Of a DNA stretch of 64,000 nucleotides, positions 2,231 through 40,771 are shown one piece after another. Each line of letters starts with the position of its first letter. The stretch's first letter is position 1. The position numbers and the translations under genes are program-made. Under the pieces are notes generated by a model, which saw nothing but the letters and a program-made list of their open reading frames with translations, had not been told where the DNA came from and made no database searches. Origin of the DNA: an uncultured Candidatus Saccharibacteria bacterium (GTDB taxonomy: Bacteria > Patescibacteriota > Saccharimonadia > Saccharimonadales > Saccharimonadaceae); the NCBI GenBank assembly GCA_938030095.1, contig CALHGK010000010.1, positions 71,975 to 135,974 of the forward strand, given 5' to 3'.

Positions 2231-3460
2231 CTACAACACAGCCATACAGCGCAGCTGCCGGCGATAAACTGCCGCGAGCAGCACCGCTTGGATGATGCCT
2301 GCCACCATAAAACACAGCACACTACCCAGCATCGCATAGTGCTGCACCACGCTATATGACACGACTGTGAGTACGATATTACTCAGCAAAAGTATATAGA
2401 ACTGCCCTTTAAACTCGCGCAGCACGGTGAGGATATTGATATAAATCGACACCAGCGCATTAGCCACCGCTCCCACCACCATGATGAGCAGCTCAGTGCG
2501 ATAATCAGTAATACGCGCATTAAAAATGAGAGTAAGAAGCGGTGCCCCAACCAGCCACGTCGCAATCAGTGTCAGCGCACTAATCCCCAAGACGATGAGG
2601 ATAATTTTGCTCACCAGCGCGTGGAACTCAAGGCGCTTCTGCTGATGATAGAGCTCCGACAGCTGCACGATATTGGGCTGAATAATGAAGGTAATAAACA
2701 GCGAGAGTAATGTAATGGGCATAGCCATAATACCAAAATACGCGATCTCGTGCGTGTGGAATGTATCGAGAAAATAGCGCGGAATATTAAGCGAAAACAT
2801 CGTCAAAAATGTGGTAAGAAACACTGGTGCGCAGCGCCGCATGATCATACCAACATGACGCAGCTTGGGCACGAGATGATCGATATGGGGCTGGATAGAT
2901 TCGTACCGCTGTACCTGTTGCCAATCATACAACACAAGCATGAGAGCATTAACCACCACAATTGCCACCACCCCCCACAGTACACTATGCATAAGCATAT
3001 CGACGAGCAAAAATGCCACAAAGCCCCCTACCGCCTTAATCGTAAGCGAATAGCCAACGATGTAGAGCCTGTGGTGAATCTGCAGCACGCCATAGAGTGC
3101 GTCGGCCACTGCCTCCAGCGCCTTGAAGAGTACGAGCGCGATGATGATACTCGACTTCACGACATCATAGTGATTTGCCACGCAAAACAGCACCGCACCC
3201 ACCATCATCACGATCGACGTCACGAGTTTGACGGCAAGGTAACTGCTGCTACTAAACTCTTTGCGCACATCCGACACCTGATAAGTACGCCCACCCCATA
3301 AACCAATCGCCCAAAACACCACCGAGAGCGACAGCGCAAAGGAAAAAACCCCCGAGTCGGCAATGCCATTCAGCCGCGTAATAAGCAGCAGGAGCGCCGG
3401 CGAGATGGCACTTTGCAAAAAGGAGCCGATGGAATTCCAGATATAATTTTTAGATTGCAT
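2231..3460 (-). CDS. polysaccharide flippase, Wzx/MOP-superfamily-like polytopic membrane protein
   Basis: 409 aa, ~12 hydrophobic helices; N-terminus MQSKNYIWNSIGSFLQSAISPALLLLITRLNGIADSGVFSFA typical of oligosaccharide-unit flippases. Confidence 0.65.
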   Translation of the reverse strand: MQSKNYIWNSIGSFLQSAISPALLLLITRLNGIADSGVFSFALSLSVVFWAIGLWGGRTYQVSDVRKEFSSSSYLAVKLVTSIVMMVGAVLFCVANHYDVVKSSIIIALVLFKALEAVADALYGVLQIHHRLYIVGYSLTIKAVGGFVAFLLVDMLMHSVLWGVVAIVVVNALMLVLYDWQQVQRYESIQPHIDHLVPKLRHVGMIMRRCAPVFLTTFLTMFSLNIPRYFLDTFHTHEIAYFGIMAMPITLLSLFITFIIQPNIVQLSELYHQQKRLEFHALVSKIILIVLGISALTLIATWLVGAPLLTLIFNARITDYRTELLIMVVGAVANALVSIYINILTVLREFKGQFYILLLSNIVLTVVSYSVVQHYAMLGSVLCFMVAGIIQAVLLAAVYRRQLRCMAVL

Positions 3461-3552
3461 AATCTTATTTAGTATACCACTGGTTGGTTATTTCTCGCGA
3501 TTTAGACCATAATTTGCTCTGTTGTGATTTGTGCTCTATAATCAGGCGTGTT

Positions 3553-4992
3553 ATGAAGAAATATTGGGCATTATTCGAATCATTTATTGCACGGCCAGAG
3601 CGGGTCTTTCTTTCGCTGTGTTTGTTGTTTGGCTTATTGTCGGCGTTTTTTGTGCCGCAGCTGTCGGTGAGTGATGAAAATATGCACTACTTGCGGGCGT
3701 ATGCGCTGGCAGATGGGCGCTTAGAATCCAAGCGCTGCACCTATCCAGCGGACGTTAATGGCCGAGCATCATCGGTGTATCATGGCAATATCAGCGCTGA
3801 TTATTCGCGCCCCATCAACCGCTCAGATCTCAAGACAACAAGCAAATGCAACAGTGCTGTGGGCTATGCCCCTATTATGCATGCACCGCAAACGCTTGGT
3901 ATTTTCATCGCTAATATCTTCAATGGGTCGACAGGCCTAACGATTCTCTTTGGGCGGATTGCAAACTTGCTGTTCTACGCGCTCAGTGTATTTTTCATTA
4001 TCAAGTGGGTGCGCATTGGTAAGTGGGTCTTTGCAGTAGTGGGGCTGCTACCACTAATGGTTCATCTCGCTGCCTCGCTCTCGAGCGATGTCATGACGAA
4101 CGTGGCGATATTCCTCATTACTGCCATGACGCTCAATCTCTACACCCAAGAAACGCTGATCCGCCGCAAGCAAGTTGCTGGCCTCTTAGCTATAGCGGCG
4201 CTGCTGGCACTGACCAAGGCGGTTAATGGTTTGCTGCTCTTCCCGCTTCTGTTTTTGCCAAAGCGACTCTTCATCCCAAACACCGAGCTGCCGAAGCTGC
4301 CATCACTTTTCAAGAAGCTCCCCCTCAACCTGCATAAGTGGGCACTGATCGCGGGCGCTGGCATTGTGTCGCTGGCGGCACTGCTCATCTGGCAAAAGAT
4401 CTATGATGGTGCACTCCTCTCATCTGGCGCAGCCGATAATCCGCTGCATCACAACCCGCTTATGTTTATCCGTATCCTCTTTAACACCTACATCAATCCA
4501 AACATTGGCTACACCGATATCGTAGTACGTGGTAGTGTGGGCGACTTCTCAAGCTTCAAATATCACCTGCCGCTCTTTGTTTTGATTCCACTCTTTCTGC
4601 TGGTCTTTCTTGCACTCATCAAGCGCGATAAGGCCGAGGAGCAAGCACTAGCACCAGCTGCTGGTCGATTAGCCGCGGCCAACCTCACTACTGTTGCCGT
4701 CTTTATTGCGGCGGTTTCATACGCGATGTACACCGCCTGGGCGCTGCTACCAATTCGCTTTGGTGCTGGTGCATACTACGCCGATGGGGTGCAGGGGCGT
4801 TACTTTACGGCGCTACTCGTGCTCCTCATCCCCTGTGGGGTGTGGCTACGCAAGTATATTTGGTTCCATACTGCCTCGGCTAAGGTATTTCACGCCCTTA
4901 TATTCTTTGGCTGCGGGGCAATTTTGTTGTACTACACCTTTGGCACCTATTGGGCCTATCACGCGCCGATACCGGTACCACCGGTGGCATAA
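3553..4992 (+). CDS. large polytopic membrane protein, DUF2142-like putative glycosyltransferase/polymerase of the polysaccharide locus
   Basis: ORF 3484..4992; preferred start ATG 3553 (MKKYWALFESF...). Multiple TM helices with a large extracytoplasmic loop, as in GT-C-type enzymes. Family assignment is tentative. Confidence 0.45.
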   Translation: MKKYWALFESFIARPERVFLSLCLLFGLLSAFFVPQLSVSDENMHYLRAYALADGRLESKRCTYPADVNGRASSVYHGNISADYSRPINRSDLKTTSKCNSAVGYAPIMHAPQTLGIFIANIFNGSTGLTILFGRIANLLFYALSVFFIIKWVRIGKWVFAVVGLLPLMVHLAASLSSDVMTNVAIFLITAMTLNLYTQETLIRRKQVAGLLAIAALLALTKAVNGLLLFPLLFLPKRLFIPNTELPKLPSLFKKLPLNLHKWALIAGAGIVSLAALLIWQKIYDGALLSSGAADNPLHHNPLMFIRILFNTYINPNIGYTDIVVRGSVGDFSSFKYHLPLFVLIPLFLLVFLALIKRDKAEEQALAPAAGRLAAANLTTVAVFIAAVSYAMYTAWALLPIRFGAGAYYADGVQGRYFTALLVLLIPCGVWLRKYIWFHTASAKVFHALIFFGCGAILLYYTFGTYWAYHAPIPVPPVA

Positions 4993-5187
4993 ATCTCGGT
5001 GCTAGCACGAGGGGTTGATGTTTATAGAGAAGCAGTACTCTTTGTGGTGTCTTGAATGAGAGAGTAATACAAACAGAGCGATACGAGAATTGGTAAGGTT
5101 CTGATATACCATTGAGAAGATGGGATTATATAAGGATTCTTTGATATTCCATATTCCACCTTCCCCTTTCATGACGCTTATGCTATA

Positions 5188-5793
5188 GTGACATGGAACA
5201 CTAATAGCACAAGCATTATGAAATTATTACGTACTCTATCCAAAAAACGTCTCACGCTCATCATTGGTATTGGCATTGCGCTCGTCGCCGCTGGTGGTTA
5301 TGGTGCCTATATCGCAACGCGTCCCGTCTCGCTACCACCCCTGTCAGATGAGCCAACGCCAGCCCAAAAACAAACGCAGCACAAGACCGATGCCGCCACG
5401 AAGGAATCATTTCTAGATAGCAACACAAACCACGATACGAATACTACCAAAGACACCTCACAGCAGCGCACCACCCAGGCTCAGCCCGCGCCAATTCCAA
5501 CGTCAGCGAAACATATTGAGCTCTCTGCTGAGCAGTCAGGCGAAACGGTCGTTGTGACTACTAAGCTGAGAGAACAAGGCTTTTCCTCTGGTCAGTGCGT
5601 GCTGACGATCACTAGTAGCGAGCAGCGCTCTGAGCAGCACGCTGCCATCATCTACCAACCAGAATATTCCACCTGTGCTGGCTTCTCTGTGCCCGTCCGA
5701 TCATTGCCCAAAGGTACGTGGCATATCTCTCTCACTGTCACGCCGCTTGGTGGCAAGGCACTCACGAAGACACTTGATAAGGAGATTCGCTAG
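5188..5793 (+). CDS. hypothetical membrane-anchored protein (single N-terminal TM, Thr/Gln-rich linker)
   Basis: 201 aa; GTG 5188 or ATG 5218; TM LTLIIGIGIALVAAGGYGAYIA; stop abuts start of ChW protein (5793/5794), so probably co-transcribed. Confidence 0.45.
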   Translation: MTWNTNSTSIMKLLRTLSKKRLTLIIGIGIALVAAGGYGAYIATRPVSLPPLSDEPTPAQKQTQHKTDAATKESFLDSNTNHDTNTTKDTSQQRTTQAQPAPIPTSAKHIELSAEQSGETVVVTTKLREQGFSSGQCVLTITSSEQRSEQHAAIIYQPEYSTCAGFSVPVRSLPKGTWHISLTVTPLGGKALTKTLDKEIR

Positions 5794-8100: not shown

Positions 8101-8112
8101 TCAACATATAAA

Positions 8113-8142
8113 ACACTCCTCCCATATCTGTGGGAGGAGTGT
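8113..8142. terminator. 12-bp stem hairpin between convergent genes (bidirectional terminator candidate)
   Basis: acactcctccca-tatctg-tgggaggagtgt between ChW gene stop (8100) and glycosyltransferase stop (8168). Confidence 0.5.
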
Positions 8143-8167
8143 CATACATTATAACAAGACAACAACT

Positions 8168-14822: not shown

Positions 14823-15182
14823 CTCAGCTTAGTTGTTCTGTCACAGGATGAACCATGCAAATCTCAAAATACTCGCTGATTACTCCTCTCTTCTTCAGTA
14901 ATACTCTATTTTCTAGTTAACAAGAGGATAAGACTAGCGCCAAAGAGGTGAATTGTAAAAACTGGCTTTTGCATGGTAATTATACCGAAAATGTTCCGAC
15001 CAGATCCTATATTAGTGTTTCCCTGTCTGCTGAGTGGCCAGCCTCCAGATATTTTCTTGCATAATTATACTACGAAGGTAGCGTTTCGCACTCTATCAAT
15101 ATGCAATTAGCCTGCGTCATCTCACCCCTGTTACGTACGCAATCATTTTGCATATTCGCCATCTATGCGTACAATAATACCT

Positions 15183-16232: not shown

Positions 16233-17101
16233 TGACCCCTGATATCTTTCGCGGCAAGCATGTCATTGTCCAGGGTATAACGGGCAAAAACGGCTCATTT
16301 CATACCGAACGTATGCTAGCGAGTGGCACACATATCATTGGTGGCACATCGCCCAATCGGTCGGTTACAGAGGTACACGGCGTGCCGGTCTTCCGGGCGA
16401 TTCGCGAAATTCAGGCGCAGCAGCCTGTTGATATTTCCGTCATTTTTGTACCAGCAGCTCATGCCAAGGCAGCGATTATGGAGGCAATCGACGCGGAGGT
16501 GCCACTCATTATTTGTATCACCGAGGGTGTGCCTGTCCACGATATGTTGCATATAAAACAACGCCTGGCAACCAGTTCTTCGCTTTTGATCGGCCCCAAC
16601 TGCCCCGGCGTTCTCATCCCCGGCGTACATAACCTTGGCATCATCCCTGCCACGCTCGCCACACCAGGTCACACTGCTATCGTCAGCCGCAGTGGCACCC
16701 TCACCTACGAAGCAATGAGCCTTCTCACCCAAGCAGGTATTGGCCAGCGCTATGTGATTGGGATTGGCGGCGATATGATTGGCGGCAGCAGCTTTATTGA
16801 TTGCTTGCAGTTGTTTGAACAGGATGTGGCGGTAGAGCAGATTGTGCTGATCGGTGAAATTGGTGGCACGAGCGAGATTGCCGCGGCGGATTATATTAAG
16901 CGTCATATAAGCAAACCAGTCTATGCTTACATTGCGGGCCACAGTGCACCATCTGGAGTACAGATGGGCCATGCTGGGGCGATCCTTGGCACAAATGAGC
17001 TGGAGTCAGCCCAGGCCAAGACGGCCCGGCTCGAGGCCAGTGGCGCAGTGGTGGCATCGTCCATCCAGTCGCTCATCGCGCTCATACCAACCAATAAGTG
17101 A
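16229..17101 (+). CDS. sucD: succinate--CoA ligase alpha subunit (CoA-binding)
   Basis: 290 aa; GKHVIVQGITGKNGSFHTERMLASGTHIIGGTSP...; phosphohistidine loop GHAGAI. Confidence 0.85.
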   Translation: MMTPDIFRGKHVIVQGITGKNGSFHTERMLASGTHIIGGTSPNRSVTEVHGVPVFRAIREIQAQQPVDISVIFVPAAHAKAAIMEAIDAEVPLIICITEGVPVHDMLHIKQRLATSSSLLIGPNCPGVLIPGVHNLGIIPATLATPGHTAIVSRSGTLTYEAMSLLTQAGIGQRYVIGIGGDMIGGSSFIDCLQLFEQDVAVEQIVLIGEIGGTSEIAAADYIKRHISKPVYAYIAGHSAPSGVQMGHAGAILGTNELESAQAKTARLEASGAVVASSIQSLIALIPTNK

Positions 17102-17116
17102 TACAATAAGGCTACG

Positions 17117-18064
17117 ATGAAAACAATCACCATTCTTATTCCTGCCTACAACGAAGCAGCTGTTTTGCCACAGCTGTTTGCCCGGCTCGAGACGCTGCAG
17201 CGCAGTGTCGATCGCCGGCGCTACCAGTTCGAATTCTTATTTATTAATGATGGTAGCCAGGATCACACGCTCGAGCTCATCCAGATCGAGCAGCAACACA
17301 ACCCCGCTATTGCCTACCTCAATCTCTCGCGCAACTTTGGCAAAGAAGCTGCTATGCTGGCTGGCTTCGACCACGCCGCGGGTGATGCTGTGGTGGTAAT
17401 TGATGCCGACCTGCAAGACCCACCAGAGCTGATCCCGCAGATGATCGAGCTGTGGGAACAGGGGTACGATGACGTATATGCGCGGCGCCGAAGCCGCTCA
17501 GGCGAGACCTGGCTCAAGAAAAAAACTGCCGCGTGGTATTACCGCCTCCTCCAGAGTACGACGCATATTCCTGTTCAGATCGACACGGGCGACTTCCGCT
17601 TACTGAGCAAACGCTGCGTCACTGCCATCACCCAGCTGCGCGAATCTCAGCGCAATACTAAAGCGATCTTTAGCTGGGTGGGGTATAAAAAGAAGGAGAT
17701 CCTCTACGACCGCGACCCACGGGCTGCCGGTACTATCAAGCAAAATCCGCGCACGCTCATCAATCTCGCTATTGATGGCATCACGAGCTTTACCACCGCG
17801 CCACTGCGTATCTCGGCGGTGCTGGGCTTCCTTATCGCCTTCTTGGCCTCTATCTATATTCTCTATCTGCTCATCCGACCACTGTTCGGTGTGCCAACCG
17901 GTGCAGGCTATTCGTCGCTCATGGCGGTGATTCTCTTCCTTGGTGGAGTGCAACTGCTGAGTTTGGGGGTTATTGGCGAATACATCGCCCGGATTTTTAG
18001 CGAAACGAAGCAGCGCCCGCCCTATCTCGTTGAGGAGCATCGTGAGGCTCACCATCGCAAATAA
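17117..18064 (+). CDS. GT2 polyprenyl-phosphate glycosyltransferase (GtrB/DPM1-like) with C-terminal TM helices
   Basis: 315 aa; ILIPAYNEAAVLPQLFARL, DADLQDPPE motif, two C-terminal TM helices. Confidence 0.75.
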   Translation: MKTITILIPAYNEAAVLPQLFARLETLQRSVDRRRYQFEFLFINDGSQDHTLELIQIEQQHNPAIAYLNLSRNFGKEAAMLAGFDHAAGDAVVVIDADLQDPPELIPQMIELWEQGYDDVYARRRSRSGETWLKKKTAAWYYRLLQSTTHIPVQIDTGDFRLLSKRCVTAITQLRESQRNTKAIFSWVGYKKKEILYDRDPRAAGTIKQNPRTLINLAIDGITSFTTAPLRISAVLGFLIAFLASIYILYLLIRPLFGVPTGAGYSSLMAVILFLGGVQLLSLGVIGEYIARIFSETKQRPPYLVEEHREAHHRK

Positions 18065-18449
18065 CAGCGGTAAGTTGTTGCGGTTTGCGCTCGTTGGCGG
18101 AATTAATACAGCGATTGATATTGGCTTGCTATTTGGGCTCACCGCGCTTGGCGTGCCAAAGCTTGCGGCTAATACGGTATCAACGGGCCTTGCCTTTATT
18201 TTTAGTTTTTTCGCCAATAAGTCATATACCTTCCGCGCCCAAGGCAATATGCGTCGGCAGCTGATCTTGTTTGTTATCATCACTCTGGCAGGCTTGTGGG
18301 GGCTGCAAAATGCGGTTATTTTCTGCATTTCGCCTATCCTTGCCTCTGTTATTCATGCTGAGTCACTTGTGCTGCTGCTCGCAAAAATTATTGCTACTGG
18401 TGCATCGCTGGTGTGGAATTATTGTTTGTATGATCATGTTGTTTTTTGA
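18042..18449 (+). CDS. GtrA-family small membrane protein (flippase partner of GtrB)
   Basis: ORF 17973..18449 in frame; likely GTG start 18042 overlapping end of GtrB; LLRFALVGGINTAIDIGLLF...FFANKSYTFRA matches GtrA signature; 4 TM. Confidence 0.6.
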   Translation: MRLTIANNSGKLLRFALVGGINTAIDIGLLFGLTALGVPKLAANTVSTGLAFIFSFFANKSYTFRAQGNMRRQLILFVIITLAGLWGLQNAVIFCISPILASVIHAESLVLLLAKIIATGASLVWNYCLYDHVVF

Positions 18450-18527: not shown

Positions 18528-19049
18528 TTATTGACGCTGATAATCATCCGCCACTCGCACAATATCATCCTCTGTTGATGGGTACGCTGGGTTGGTGTGC
18601 TGCCAGAGCTCAGCAATAATCGTTGGGTGCTGAGCATCACCGCAAGCACGGTGGCGCTCCCCTGCCGCCAACCTTACGATATCGCCTGCCTGAGCTGGTG
18701 TTGGCTGGGCTGGTAGCTCGTCGCTCATGTTGCGATAGTACGCACCAGCGGTCAGAAAACGCCACAACTCCGCCCGCCGATGATGATATTGCCAGCTCAG
18801 ACGCGCCCCCGGCCGGACAAAAAGAATCTTAGGACTGAGCGGCACATGAGCACTGTCCTTAGTTATTACTTCCGATACTGCAAAGAAATCCGCCGCAAAC
18901 TGCTCTACCTGCGCCGGGTCAATACAGATAAACCCACCCCAGGGCCGCTGGCTATCTGTCCCAGTGATGTGGTAGCCCGCCTGGTGAATAATATATTCTA
19001 TCTGCGCCAGATTCGTCTGGGCTGTTATGTGTTGCGGTAGTTCCGTCAT
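18528..19049 (-). CDS. cupin-fold protein, mannose-6-phosphate isomerase type II C-terminal-domain-like
   Basis: 173 aa; SWQYHHRRAELWRFLTAGAYY cupin motif 1 as in PMI type II. Confidence 0.5.
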   Translation of the reverse strand: MTELPQHITAQTNLAQIEYIIHQAGYHITGTDSQRPWGGFICIDPAQVEQFAADFFAVSEVITKDSAHVPLSPKILFVRPGARLSWQYHHRRAELWRFLTAGAYYRNMSDELPAQPTPAQAGDIVRLAAGERHRACGDAQHPTIIAELWQHTNPAYPSTEDDIVRVADDYQRQ

Positions 19050-19130
19050 ATTATCTGTAATATGGGTATTATAGCACTTTTATATACAGTTTGTGTTTTT
19101 ATTATTTATTGGAATTTGGTAATTCCTAAT

Positions 19131-19260
19131 CCCCGCTCACTACCCCTCCGATGGAGTGTGAAAACAGATTGCAATAATCTGTTTTCAGCCCAGCGCAAGA
19201 GGTCGACACCTGGGAAATATCGACCCTTATAGTGTTCCTGAGGAGGGGTAGTGAGCGGGG
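19131..19260. repeat. 130-bp element bounded by a perfect 19-bp inverted repeat with a nested internal hairpin
   Basis: CCCCGCTCACTACCCCTCC (19131-19149) and its exact reverse complement (19242-19260); internal hairpin gaaaacagatt-gcaata-aatctgttttc. Confidence 0.6.
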
Positions 19261-19359
19261 GTAATATTACAGAGATGTTACTTTAAATTTAATGCCACCC
19301 GTCTTGACACACGCGTGCCCATCTGGCGCTTTCGGTGCGAGGACTGTATACTAGGAAGT

Positions 19360-20463
19360 ATGAGTTTTCATATTGCAATCGACGCCCGCGTTATCAATTC
19401 TGGCACAGGCACATACGTCGTGAAGCTGCTCGAGCAGCTGGAGCGGCTTGATACAACCAACCGTTATAGCATCCTCGTCCCCACCAAGGATCGCGACTAT
19501 TGGCAGCCACACAACCCCAACTTCACCATCCGCACGGTCGACTTTGCTAATTATTCGCTGGCAGAGCAGCTAGGCTTCCGCCGCTATCTGGATGAGCTAA
19601 AGCCCGACTTAGTACACTTTTGTATGCCGCAGCAGCCGGTTTTTTACAGAGGTAAACACGTCACAACGGTGCATGATATGACCCTCCTCAAGACGTATAA
19701 TTCCGATAAAAATTGGCTCGTGTTTCATCTTAAGCAATTGGTGGGACGCTGGGTGTTTCGGCGGATTGCCCGCACCAGCGAACATATCATCACTATTTCT
19801 CAGACGACTAAGCAAGAATATCAGGACTTTACTAAGATCCCCGATAGCAAAATCTCGGTCATCTACGAAGCGGGCGAGGTACACCCTGGTCAGCTCACGC
19901 CATATATAGACCTCCCCTTCAAGCGGTTCATCATCTACGTTGGGCAGCAGCCAGACTACAAGAATTTGCGTCGCCTCGCAGCCGCACACCAGCAGCTACT
20001 GAGCCGCTGGCCCGACCTTGGCCTGGTGTTTGTGGGGCGGATGAACGAAGACACCAAGCGCAACCAAGCCTACTACCAACAGCAGGGCTATCGCAATATC
20101 CACTTCACTGGGTTCATCCCCGATGGGCAGCGCGATTGGCTACTTAACAAAGCCGAGGCATACGTCTTTCCATCACTGATGGAGGGGTTTGGCCTGCCAC
20201 CGCTCGAAACGATGGCGTATGGCACGACCCCTGTTATATCGAGCAATACCTCGTGCATGCCCGAGATTTTGGGCGATGCTGCTGAGTACTTCGACCCACT
20301 CGACGTCGATGCCATCGCGAGCGCAATCGACCGTGTCCTCAGCCAGCCAGCTCGCCGCCGCGAACTCATCGTCAAAGGCAAAGCTCAAGCTGCCCGCTAC
20401 TCGTGGGAACGTTGTGGCAAGGAAACGTTGGCGGTGTATGAGCGAGCGCTTGGTAAGCAGTAA
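19360..20463 (+). CDS. glycosyltransferase family 4
   Basis: ORF 19315..20463, preferred ATG 19360 (MSFHIAIDARVINSGTG...); EGFGLPPLETMAYGTPVISS E-x7-E motif. Confidence 0.75.
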   Translation: MSFHIAIDARVINSGTGTYVVKLLEQLERLDTTNRYSILVPTKDRDYWQPHNPNFTIRTVDFANYSLAEQLGFRRYLDELKPDLVHFCMPQQPVFYRGKHVTTVHDMTLLKTYNSDKNWLVFHLKQLVGRWVFRRIARTSEHIITISQTTKQEYQDFTKIPDSKISVIYEAGEVHPGQLTPYIDLPFKRFIIYVGQQPDYKNLRRLAAAHQQLLSRWPDLGLVFVGRMNEDTKRNQAYYQQQGYRNIHFTGFIPDGQRDWLLNKAEAYVFPSLMEGFGLPPLETMAYGTTPVISSNTSCMPEILGDAAEYFDPLDVDAIASAIDRVLSQPARRRELIVKGKAQAARYSWERCGKETLAVYERALGKQ

Positions 20464-20549
20464 GTGTGATATATAAAATAACAGAGTAACCTATATATAG
20501 TAGCAGCTCCTATGGTTCAATACAGGACCTAAAGGAACTACTACTACGG

Positions 20550-21266
20550 CTACGCACGAGACATACTCGTCGCTCGTTCTACCAAGGCTTGCACAGCAGC
20601 ACCTCGAGCTTGTGCTATCTGTGATTCCTTCCACGAAGGATCGAGTAATATACCAAGGGCTGCTATATCATCCAATGATGGGTTATTCTTTTTTCTCACA
20701 TCTCCTACTGTTTGGTGTATATCTAGCTGACCACCCTCCACTGTTGAGAGTTTCATATGACCGATTGTCGGCTCCTCTGTCGTCAACCCTAATTCATACA
20801 GGTTATCAGAGGGTATATTCGTGTTCATGTCACACCCAGTTGTTTTTTTATTCATTGCAATATCTATACTTACTTCGCGGTAGAGTAATGACTCATGTTC
20901 ATTACTCTCTTTGTCGCATTCTTTTGCCACCCCTATTGTAATGTGTATACCTTCACCTGTTCCTTCATTCTGCGTTATATGGGCAGCTTTTTGCCTTACA
21001 TCTTGCAGAAAAGCCATAATAGTCTCGGACGCATTTTGCTCGGCAATGTTTGTAAGATCTTCCAAGGTGTAGGTTGTTATGTAGTTCTCTTGCCTACTAA
21101 TGTCATTGTATGGGTCACCATGGCGTATAAATGGCTTCTTATTAAGCCGTTTATCGACGAGGTTATTGAAGTCTTCTGTTGCTAGTTCCTTTGTTTTTTC
21201 CTGTTTATAATATAGGTCTTCATAACTTGGCATAGGGGGTTCCTTGTGGCTCTTAGTCTGTAACAA
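20550..21266 (-). CDS. hypothetical acidic protein, no recognisable domain; locally AT-rich
   Basis: 238 aa ORF (alternative start 21233 MPSYEDLYY); composition visibly AT-richer than neighbours. Confidence 0.4.
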   Translation of the reverse strand: MLQTKSHKEPPMPSYEDLYYKQEKTKELATEDFNNLVDKRLNKKPFIRHGDPYNDISRQENYITTYTLEDLTNIAEQNASETIMAFLQDVRQKAAHITQNEGTGEGIHITIGVAKECDKESNEHESLLYREVSIDIAMNKKTTGCDMNTNIPSDNLYELGLTTEEPTIGHMKLSTVEGGQLDIHQTVGDVRKKNNPSLDDIAALGILLDPSWKESQIAQARGAAVQALVERATSMSRA

Positions 21267-21404
21267 TTGTTATGATACTTTTTTCTCTCTGCAGTGCCAA
21301 ACGGTTAATCTACTAAGAATGCCGTCTTTTCTTAAAAGATATGTAGAGTAAGGGATGAATGTTCTTTAGTGTTCTACTCCCCTGTTGTGTGTAGACTTTT
21401 ACTT

Positions 21405-40677: not shown

Positions 40678-40771
40678 ACACTACATATAATACACAAAAA
40701 TAAGTAAGAAAACCAGCCAAATACCATAAGTAATGTATGGTATTTGGCTGGCTTGGATGAAAGCTAGATTT

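Follow-up and report, generated by a model that had tools for sequence, protein, structure and literature searches.

A lineage-specific palindromic insertion in an oral Saccharibacterium belongs to an uncatalogued family of folded elements with a member in an Actinomyces mobile element

We analysed a 64-kb stretch of DNA from an uncultured Candidatus Saccharibacteria bacterium (contig CALHGK010000010.1, positions 71,975 to 135,974; hereafter the window, with positions counted from its first letter), in which a palindromic element of 130 bp occupies positions 19131–19260. On one side of it lies a cupin gene of the mannose-6-phosphate isomerase C-terminal type (PF01050; 18528–19049, minus strand, start at 19049), on the other a gene for a GT4 glycosyltransferase (19360–20463, plus strand). 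Both genes are transcribed away from the element. They are divergent, and not convergently ended as an earlier note on this DNA had stated, so that the palindrome lies upstream of both, ~80 bp from cupin and ~100 bp from GT4. Because the two genes diverge, the palindrome is not the terminator of the cupin gene, an option that the note had left standing. No T-run follows the stem on either strand, just as the note had remarked in pointing to the absence of a U-tract, and a scan for intrinsic terminators found none at the element. What, then, lies between these genes? The palindrome is genuine and not a product of chance, it forms the core of a lineage-specific insertion, and it is not a regulatory leader of the GT4 gene. 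This core is one member of an uncatalogued family of non-coding elements, folded and 110–250 nt long. Judged by sequence similarity, the family is common to the chromosomes of oral Saccharibacteria and to a MOB_C-relaxase integrative element of Actinomyces.

The left arm of the palindrome, CCCCGCTCACTACCCCTCC (19131–19149), is 100% complementary to 19242–19260, with a spacing of 92 nt between the arms. This perfect 19-bp inverted repeat had been recognised before, as had one hairpin nested inside it, a 12-bp perfect stem (TGAAAACAGATT / AATCTGTTTTCA, 19159–19170 / 19176–19187) with a 5-nt loop. A third hairpin at 19201–19210 / 19216–19225 had been overlooked; the repeat thus encloses two hairpins, not one. 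Could such symmetry arise by chance? The palindrome is the sole perfect inverted repeat of at least 15 nt within 400 bp anywhere in the window. Its 19-mer arm has a chance expectation of 0.01 occurrences, against two observed, one for each arm. A comparison of folding energy with shuffled controls, which the earlier note had proposed, yields ~−76 kcal/mol for the RNA fold of either strand, against −39 +/− 4 for the shuffles (z −9.2 and −9.35), and ~−41 kcal/mol for either strand with DNA parameters (z −9 to −10). Uniqueness, arm expectation and fold together place the palindrome beyond chance. It matches none of the known RNA classes, in agreement with the first impression: Rfam 15, scanned at gathering score, finds nothing in the window except 2 tRNAs, and at E up to 10 only meaningless generic-hairpin miRNA matches.

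Contigs that encode cupin homologs were used to locate loci without the element. In relatives with identical gene order (YidC-Jag-GT4 on one side, cupin-GtrA-GT2-SucD on the other) only 115–119 bp separate GT4 and cupin, versus 310 bp in the window, and their cupins are 84–92% identical to ours. Because these relatives share the gene order but have the short gap, we read 19106–19298 as a lineage-specific insertion of ~190 bp, made up of an AT-rich left flank of 25 bp, the 130-bp core and an AT-rich right flank of 35–38 bp. An outgroup (L014/L015; retrieved loci carry L numbers), 54% identical, has a spacer of 51 bp. BLAST breakpoints against 12 empty-site loci show flanks that directly abut in the subject (2947|2946). 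The closest empty sites, L028–L030, are near-identical to the window on both sides and put the right edge at ~19295. No target-site duplication was significant versus shuffles (p 0.02–0.37), and a long candidate suspected by eye failed; the only matches at the insertion are of 4 nt, TAAT beside the arms and a TTAT microhomology. The inverted repeat does not sit at the insertion ends, since the insertion runs 25 bp and 35–38 bp past the arms. Inside the right-hand part, immediately before the core when read on the minus strand, lies a putative extended −10-like motif (CTCTGTAATATT, 19263–19274), and a consensus scan for a full sigma-70 promoter found none in 18950–19450. Among the empty-site lineages, L022 (3523–3713) and L023 carry an extra segment of ~127 bp between cupin and GtrA; unrelated to our element, it contains no inverted repeat.

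How widespread is the insertion? An exact scan for the 19-mer over 185,579 species genomes found the element in 5 Saccharibacteria species represented by metagenome-assembled genomes (MAGs), and a two-arm pattern scan over metagenomes added 4 more contigs. All 10 carrier sequences represent the orthologous locus, with flanks 90–95% identical. The exact arm occurs at one locus per genome in 5/5 Saccharibacteria genomes, including one 596-kb contig; single-arm matches in Streptomyces, Puia and Gemmatimonadales (3) are at chance level. In MAG CALISR01, contigs 3 and 10 (L002, L005) both end within the palindrome and overlap there by 40 nt, the assembly having been broken by the hairpin. The carriers hold 4 core haplotypes, and nucleotide diversity (pi) of the 130-bp core is 0.014, versus 0.05–0.08 in the flanking genes. 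We did not use this low value as proof of purifying selection, because variation may enter the flanks from empty-site lineages, whereas the insertion gains it through new mutation only. The locus is a recombination mosaic, exemplified by the empty-site locus L016, which is 100% identical to the window over 16950–18300. Element-free contigs contain blocks of 0.3–1.3 kb that are 100% identical to the window, beside regions only 82–90% identical, and at four-fold sites of GT4 carriers diverge as much from each other as from noncarriers. Such patterns are strong evidence for frequent homologous recombination in this Saccharibacteria complex, and the insertion is confined to one sub-lineage of it. 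Two further loci without the element, L019 (from ~17700) and L021 (from ~18000), also share 100%-identical blocks with the window.

Does the core have relatives elsewhere? The minus-strand reading frame that is open across the element was translated and searched against 1.8 billion representative proteins. This returned 14 'proteins' with E values from 7e-14 to 5e-4, aligned over LPPxEHYKGR..DLLRWAENR..VFTL; a follow-up profile search gave 27 matches, partly overlapping the first 14. The matched 'proteins' are spurious open reading frames (ORFs), short or compositionally odd, which lie over conserved nucleotide sequence. From two of them DNA copies could be recovered. The first, L032, comes from a human oral metagenome and a Saccharibacterium, as indicated by the name of its deformylase cluster (Ca. 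Nanosynbacter / Saccharimonas); the copy lies at a different locus, between convergent DUF5663 and fmt genes. The second source yielded L033–L037, high-GC contigs with an identical family copy, which we assign to Actinomyces. A further copy was found in the window itself, at 1990–2124 on the minus strand, between a 409-aa ORF (2231–3460, no Pfam match) and rmlD (890–1747). A covariance model (R1), built from the six-sequence alignment described below and the sole route by which this copy was detected, recognises it over the full length of the model with 40.3 bits (E 3e-7 to 1e-7), as the sole further full-length match in 222 kb of DNA. It aligns locally with L032 over 117 nt at a score reached by 0/300 shuffles, and its own fold is no better than shuffles with either RNA or DNA parameters. 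The window genome holds, then, one old, decayed copy and one young, perfect copy. As for the multiple copies that the earlier note would take as the sign of a MITE, the exact 19-mer is confined to one locus per genome and a diverged second copy exists in the window. Identity to the core of the window copy is 83% for L033, 79% for L032 and 63% for copy 2, which makes the Actinomyces copy the closest relative found.

The upstream flanks preserved in the spurious ORFs fall into at least 10 groups. The AT-richer copies, presumably from Saccharibacteria, account for at least 8 of these, and the Actinomyces copies share one; the family is therefore dispersed in Saccharibacteria and fixed in position in the Actinomyces element. 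All in all, the evidence for the family comprises four independent DNA lineages and ~35 spurious-ORF translations. Viral contigs, scanned with the arm and three conserved-core patterns, gave nothing but one chance match (L038), and literature searches found no account of such an element in Saccharibacteria. Two of the spurious ORFs are unusual. P0173 combines an upstream flank of the Actinomyces type with a 3' arm of the Saccharibacteria type (..TLHRMK), which hints at closely related variants in both phyla. P0122 ends in what looks like the translation of a tRNA gene, so that one copy may lie beside a tRNA. The window contains two other hairpins, at 40710–40754 and 8106–8149, with 19-nt arms that are 95% and 84% complementary and loops of 6–7 nt; they are probably terminators, and with ~14 bits in the covariance model they are unrelated to the family.

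All copies of the family share a three-way junction of the single strand, consisting of a long closing stem and two hairpins that are connected by near-invariant junctions. In the orientation of the window minus strand these junctions read UCAGGAACRCUAUAAGGGUCGA, UCGACCKCUUGCGYUGGGCUG and CACACUCC. In a six-sequence alignment 94.4% of the cells are paired and 16/48 pairs have changed on both sides. None of 500 shuffles reached the observed covariation, and slid controls gave 0–5. Independent folds of single sequences reproduce the three-way junction. In the window copy, the closing stem P1 joins the 19-nt left arm (19131–19149), invariant in 10/10 carriers, to the 19-nt right arm (19242–19260), and a change of 19261 from G to A in L009 and L026 extends it to 21 bp. 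The first junction, GATGGAGTG (19150–19158), is conserved in L032 and L033; its GGA (19153–19155) pairs with TCC (19236–19238), a pairing that is invariant in the family alignment. Hairpin P3 follows (19159–19187; the 12-bp stem with loop GCAAT). In L032 and L033 the sequence of its stem is swapped yet paired, with 5 pairs altered on both sides. The next junction, GCCCAGCGCAAGA (19188–19200), is near-invariant across the family and is translated as 'LRWAEN' in the spurious ORFs. Hairpin P2 (19201–19225) has a 10-bp stem and the loop TGGGA and covaries across the family. The last junction, CTTATAGTGTTCCTGA (19226–19241), is again near-invariant and corresponds to 'EHYKG'.

The carriers themselves differ in how P2 is paired. 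This stem is perfect in L009 (GGTCGACACC / GGTGTCGACC) and in L007 (GGTCGATATC / GATATCGACC), which differ at two pairs (C-G versus T-A). The common haplotype has C.A at these two pairs on the plus strand, equivalent to G.U on the minus strand, and the window copy adds a third such position. This looks like compensation through G.U intermediates; a single template switch within a quasi-palindrome would account equally well for each of the paired double changes in L007 and L009. Which strand is folded? In L032, L033 and copy 2 the orientation equivalent to window plus folds better, by 6–12 kcal/mol with RNA and 3–9 with DNA parameters, because C.A mismatches become G.U there; the G.U pairs of the window haplotypes favour the minus strand instead. 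Given this conflict, G.U pairs were discarded as a basis for strand assignment. The stem mismatches show no consistent RNA-type G.U bias, and they fit DNA at least as well as RNA.

Covarying stems together with invariant junctions argue for a single-stranded fold and not for a duplex operator. Of the protein-binding palindrome considered in the earlier note, a folded relaxosome site remains as a possible form, and a duplex operator is disfavoured. Two other candidates were rejected. A small protein encoded by the 56-aa ORF at 19062–19232 has no Pfam match, and a 1-nt insertion in L009/L026 shifts its frame. For a hammerhead or other ribozyme core, CUGAGGA is present, but GAAA is unconserved at the position needed and no Rfam ribozyme matches.

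The genomic context of the Actinomyces copy is that of a mobile element. In L033 the family copy lies in a non-coding gap of 580 bp, flanked by a gene for a 766-aa TrwB-like type IV coupling protein (T4CP; 2704–5004) and a Replic_Relax relaxase gene (PF13814; 5603–6538), with a large serine recombinase gene downstream and an MT-A70 methylase gene upstream. The relaxase shares 93% identity with a protein of Actinomyces oris, A. naeslundii is also represented, and the T4CP cluster includes A. johnsonii; the organisms were assigned from source names. The flank beside the family copy is identical across many sequence variants of this mobile element. PF13814 defines the MOB_C class of relaxases (PMC5357655; PMC12857230). 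In L033 an outer 28-nt inverted repeat (5038–5065 / 5262–5289) encloses the family copy and spans 252 bp. For comparison, the oriT2 (origin of transfer) of plasmid pAD1 is reportedly a large inverted repeat of ~140 bp located between a TraG-like and the relaxase gene. Set beside this size, the palindrome measures 130 bp in the window and the outer span 252 bp in L033.

Because the Actinomyces copy shares both position and size with pAD1 oriT2, we rank first the reading that the window palindrome derives from a conjugative or mobilizable element, as a solo copy of a cis-acting site of the oriT type. We adopt it tentatively, with somewhat less than even confidence. By this account the family would be a cis-acting DNA-processing site, a large inverted repeat of the oriT type, of integrative conjugative or mobilizable elements, and a folded single strand or cruciform would be the active form that the relaxosome recognises. 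We infer that the window copy may have arrived through uptake or transfer of mobile-element DNA, along with some flanking DNA, and that illegitimate or homology-facilitated recombination could then have placed it in the chromosome. There it would persist as an orphan transfer site, or as an inert scar undergoing the kind of decay seen in the copy at 1990–2124. It probably does nothing for cupin or GT4. Saccharibacteria are naturally competent and possess an essential type IV secretion system (PMC12857230), and chromosomes are known to harbour orphan oriTs (bioRxiv 10.64898/2026.01.13.699239).

Several observations weigh against an oriT-type site. Relaxase, coupling protein and other transfer genes are absent from the window and from L032, which leaves a solo copy without an evident partner; the position between T4CP and relaxase holds for L033–L037, and neither the window copy nor copy 2 nor L032 shares it. 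In pAD1 TraX, the MOB_C prototype, the relaxase binds direct repeats 70–120 bp from nic (PMC12857230), and searches of L033:4900–5650 and window 18900–19500 found no direct-repeat array of this type, nor was one seen beside any copy. A second inverted repeat in L033, with 18-nt arms 120 nt apart (5411–5428 / 5549–5566), lies immediately upstream of Replic_Relax and is an alternative candidate for the true oriT. Neither the window copy nor the Actinomyces copy matched any phage or plasmid in BLAST, and tblastn of the L033 relaxase against plasmids produced one weak Streptomyces match. The Saccharibacteria flank groups, at least 8 in number, and paired stems adapted to base composition suggest an independent life, for which a passive scar offers no explanation. 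Functional RNAs, too, typically have strongly conserved unpaired junctions, one strand folds better than the other (by the margins given above) in 3/4 lineages, and those four independent lineages are all from which the family is known as DNA.

Some of these points lead directly to an alternative: could the family be a novel structured non-coding RNA, likeliest made from the window-plus orientation, with junction nucleotides that serve in protein binding, regulation of transfer genes or ribozyme activity? Carried on the Actinomyces mobile element, such an RNA would have spread horizontally into Saccharibacteria. We consider this possible, though unlikely. Covarying stems around near-invariant unpaired junctions are what one would expect of it, and the plus orientation is the better-folding one in L032, L033 and copy 2. 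A mismatched P1 sequence is kept in many spurious-ORF variants (LPTLPP ... TLHRMK), all carrier changes in the 19201–19225 hairpin preserve minus-strand pairing, and the insertion brings its own extended −10-like motif. Yet the strand signals contradict each other, minus for the window copy and plus for the others, and the paired double changes of L007/L009 lose their force if each was a single template switch in a quasi-palindrome. Neither strand has an intrinsic terminator after the element, there is no full promoter, and Rfam offers no match even at E 5–10; scans of the L032 and L033 copies likewise gave no relevant match. The neighbouring genes are inconsistent from copy to copy (divergent, convergent, co-directional), one copy in the same genome has decayed, and a functional RNA would not usually be closed by a perfect stem of 19 bp.

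Alternatively, the element could be selfish, non-autonomous DNA: a miniature inverted-repeat transposable element (MITE), an ERIC- or Correia-like repeat, or a palindrome-associated transposable element (PATE) of the IS200/IS605 type, mobilised by a transposase in trans, in which case the Actinomyces copy would be just another insertion. This, too, we regard as possible, though unlikely. Presence/absence polymorphism at an otherwise conserved locus, terminal inverted repeats, the assembly break within the element in a MAG, and the presence of both a young, perfect and an old, decayed copy within 64 kb all fit a transposable repeat, as do the at least 8 distinct flank groups of the AT-richer, presumably Saccharibacteria, copies. 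Insertion without target-site duplication would suit single-strand transposons. For a MITE in the classic sense, the lack of a significant duplication counts on the other side, as does the position of the inverted repeat, which is not at the ends of an insertion that brought along an extra 25 and 35–38 bp. The exact arm is single per genome across the 185,579 species representatives. Copies are few and divergent, those within one genome only 63% identical, and there is no burst of near-identical ones. In Actinomyces the position of the family is the same in many variants of the mobile element, and no transposase was noticed near any copy. Selected internal hairpins and invariant junctions are unexpected, moreover, for a MITE that is recognised as a duplex. 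Of the three candidates of the earlier note, the MITE-like remnant comes closest, given the insertion, the relatives at other loci and in other genomes and the decayed second copy, and falls short on the classic hallmarks.

A cis-regulator of the neighbouring genes, whether it acted on GT4 or cupin as a riboswitch or leader, served the divergent promoters as an operator or terminated transcription, has in its favour a strong structure that lies 100 bp ahead of GT4 and 80 bp ahead of cupin, and is nevertheless very improbable: close relatives keep both genes and their promoter-like sequences without the element, the other copies lie in unrelated contexts (409-aa ORF/rmlD, convergent DUF5663/fmt, the mobile element), divergent neighbours need no terminator, and there is neither a U-tract nor a match to an Rfam riboswitch. 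For the same reasons, the same genes at empty sites and the unrelated contexts of other copies, the riboswitch-like GT4 leader put forward in the earlier note is unsupported. The two genes do have promoter-like sequences of their own. A TATACT at 19347–19352 precedes the ATG of GT4 by 7 nt, so that its mRNA may be leaderless, and extended −10 boxes of the TGnTATAAT type occur on the minus strand ahead of cupin (~19068–19076) and rmlD (1770–1780).

Why does the module matter? Saccharibacteria are obligate epibionts with tiny genomes, whose exchange of DNA with their Actinomyces hosts is poorly understood, and the genus Actinomyces includes known hosts of oral Saccharibacteria. We describe a folded non-coding module that occurs as solo, polymorphic insertions in Saccharibacteria and as a fixed part of a relaxase-bearing element in Actinomyces. 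With a core ~80% identical in the two phyla, the module marks gene flow between host and epibiont in concrete molecular terms. On a bolder reading, which we judge quite unlikely, the element would be a working transfer-related site, or else a new structured RNA or ribozyme, and would pass between the mobile elements of Actinomyces and the chromosomes of the Saccharibacteria that live on them. In that case the solo copies would be a record of conjugation-type exchange of DNA across phyla, between host and parasite, or even a means to it, for instance as T-strand ends, as insertions mediated by a relaxase or as orphan oriTs on which the essential type IV secretion system of Saccharibacteria draws. 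Independently of this, an uncatalogued family of structured elements with a covariation-supported fold offers a candidate oriT for the little-studied MOB_C relaxases, or else an RNA. Should the window copy be only a decaying scar, it would be a modest addition to the small repeats of bacteria.

Elsewhere in the window, two segments stand out for their variability among relatives. The stretch 20450–21402, between GT4 and a Jag/KhpB-like gene, contains a 238-aa ORF (20550–21266, no Pfam match). It is missing from L002, L007 and L008 and is replaced by unrelated 182- or 227-aa ORFs in other relatives, and L022, though without the palindrome, is 100% identical to the window in this segment. The stretch 14830–15092 is non-colinear with relatives: pieces of 58–112 nt match at 75–80%, mostly inverted (L004, L005, L007), as might be expected of an intergenic segment that is invertible or hypervariable.

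How does the family compare with known systems? Selfish intergenic repeats provide one point of reference. Like ERIC, Correia (CREE/NEMIS) and RUP, the window family consists of intergenic palindromes, perfect or imperfect, of ~100–150 bp without coding capacity, which show insertion polymorphism among relatives and compensatory changes that preserve the hairpin. ERIC, Correia and RUP are multi-copy in each genome, and Correia and RUP have target-site duplications, whereas the window family has few, diverged copies. Also unlike these repeats, it folds into a three-way junction with invariant junctions, and its closest relative is fixed in a mobile element of another phylum. Like the PATEs of IS200/IS605 and the attC sites of integrons, it shows insertion without target-site duplication and a conserved single-strand fold with covarying stems. 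Unlike the left- and right-end hairpins of IS200/IS605, however, its two internal hairpins are unrelated in sequence, and neither R'/R'' core sites nor a TnpA or IntI gene were seen.

Transfer origins provide another point of reference. Orphan origins described as oriT mimics and iOriT islands (Ares-Arroyo et al., bioRxiv 10.64898/2026.01.13.699239) are likewise chromosomal oriT-like sequences without relaxase or mating-pore genes. Unlike iOriT islands, the window insertion of ~190 bp has no cargo genes and no integrase, and its putative helper element is found in another phylum (Actinomyces) and not in the same cell. MOB_C enzymes form a PD-(D/E)XK class of relaxases (PMC12857230). Among systems of this class, the comparison is with pAD1 oriT2 and pAM373 oriT, served by the MOB_C relaxase TraX. 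The family shows no detectable sequence similarity to these sites (plasmid BLAST was empty), no short direct-repeat array was seen, and the window copy has no relaxase nearby. Like them, going by the pAD1 repeat that Francia and Clewell reportedly described in 2002, the Actinomyces copy in L033 occupies the place in which pAD1 and pAM373 carry a large inverted repeat of at least 140 bp, between genes for a TraG/T4CP-like protein and a MOB_C (PF13814) relaxase.

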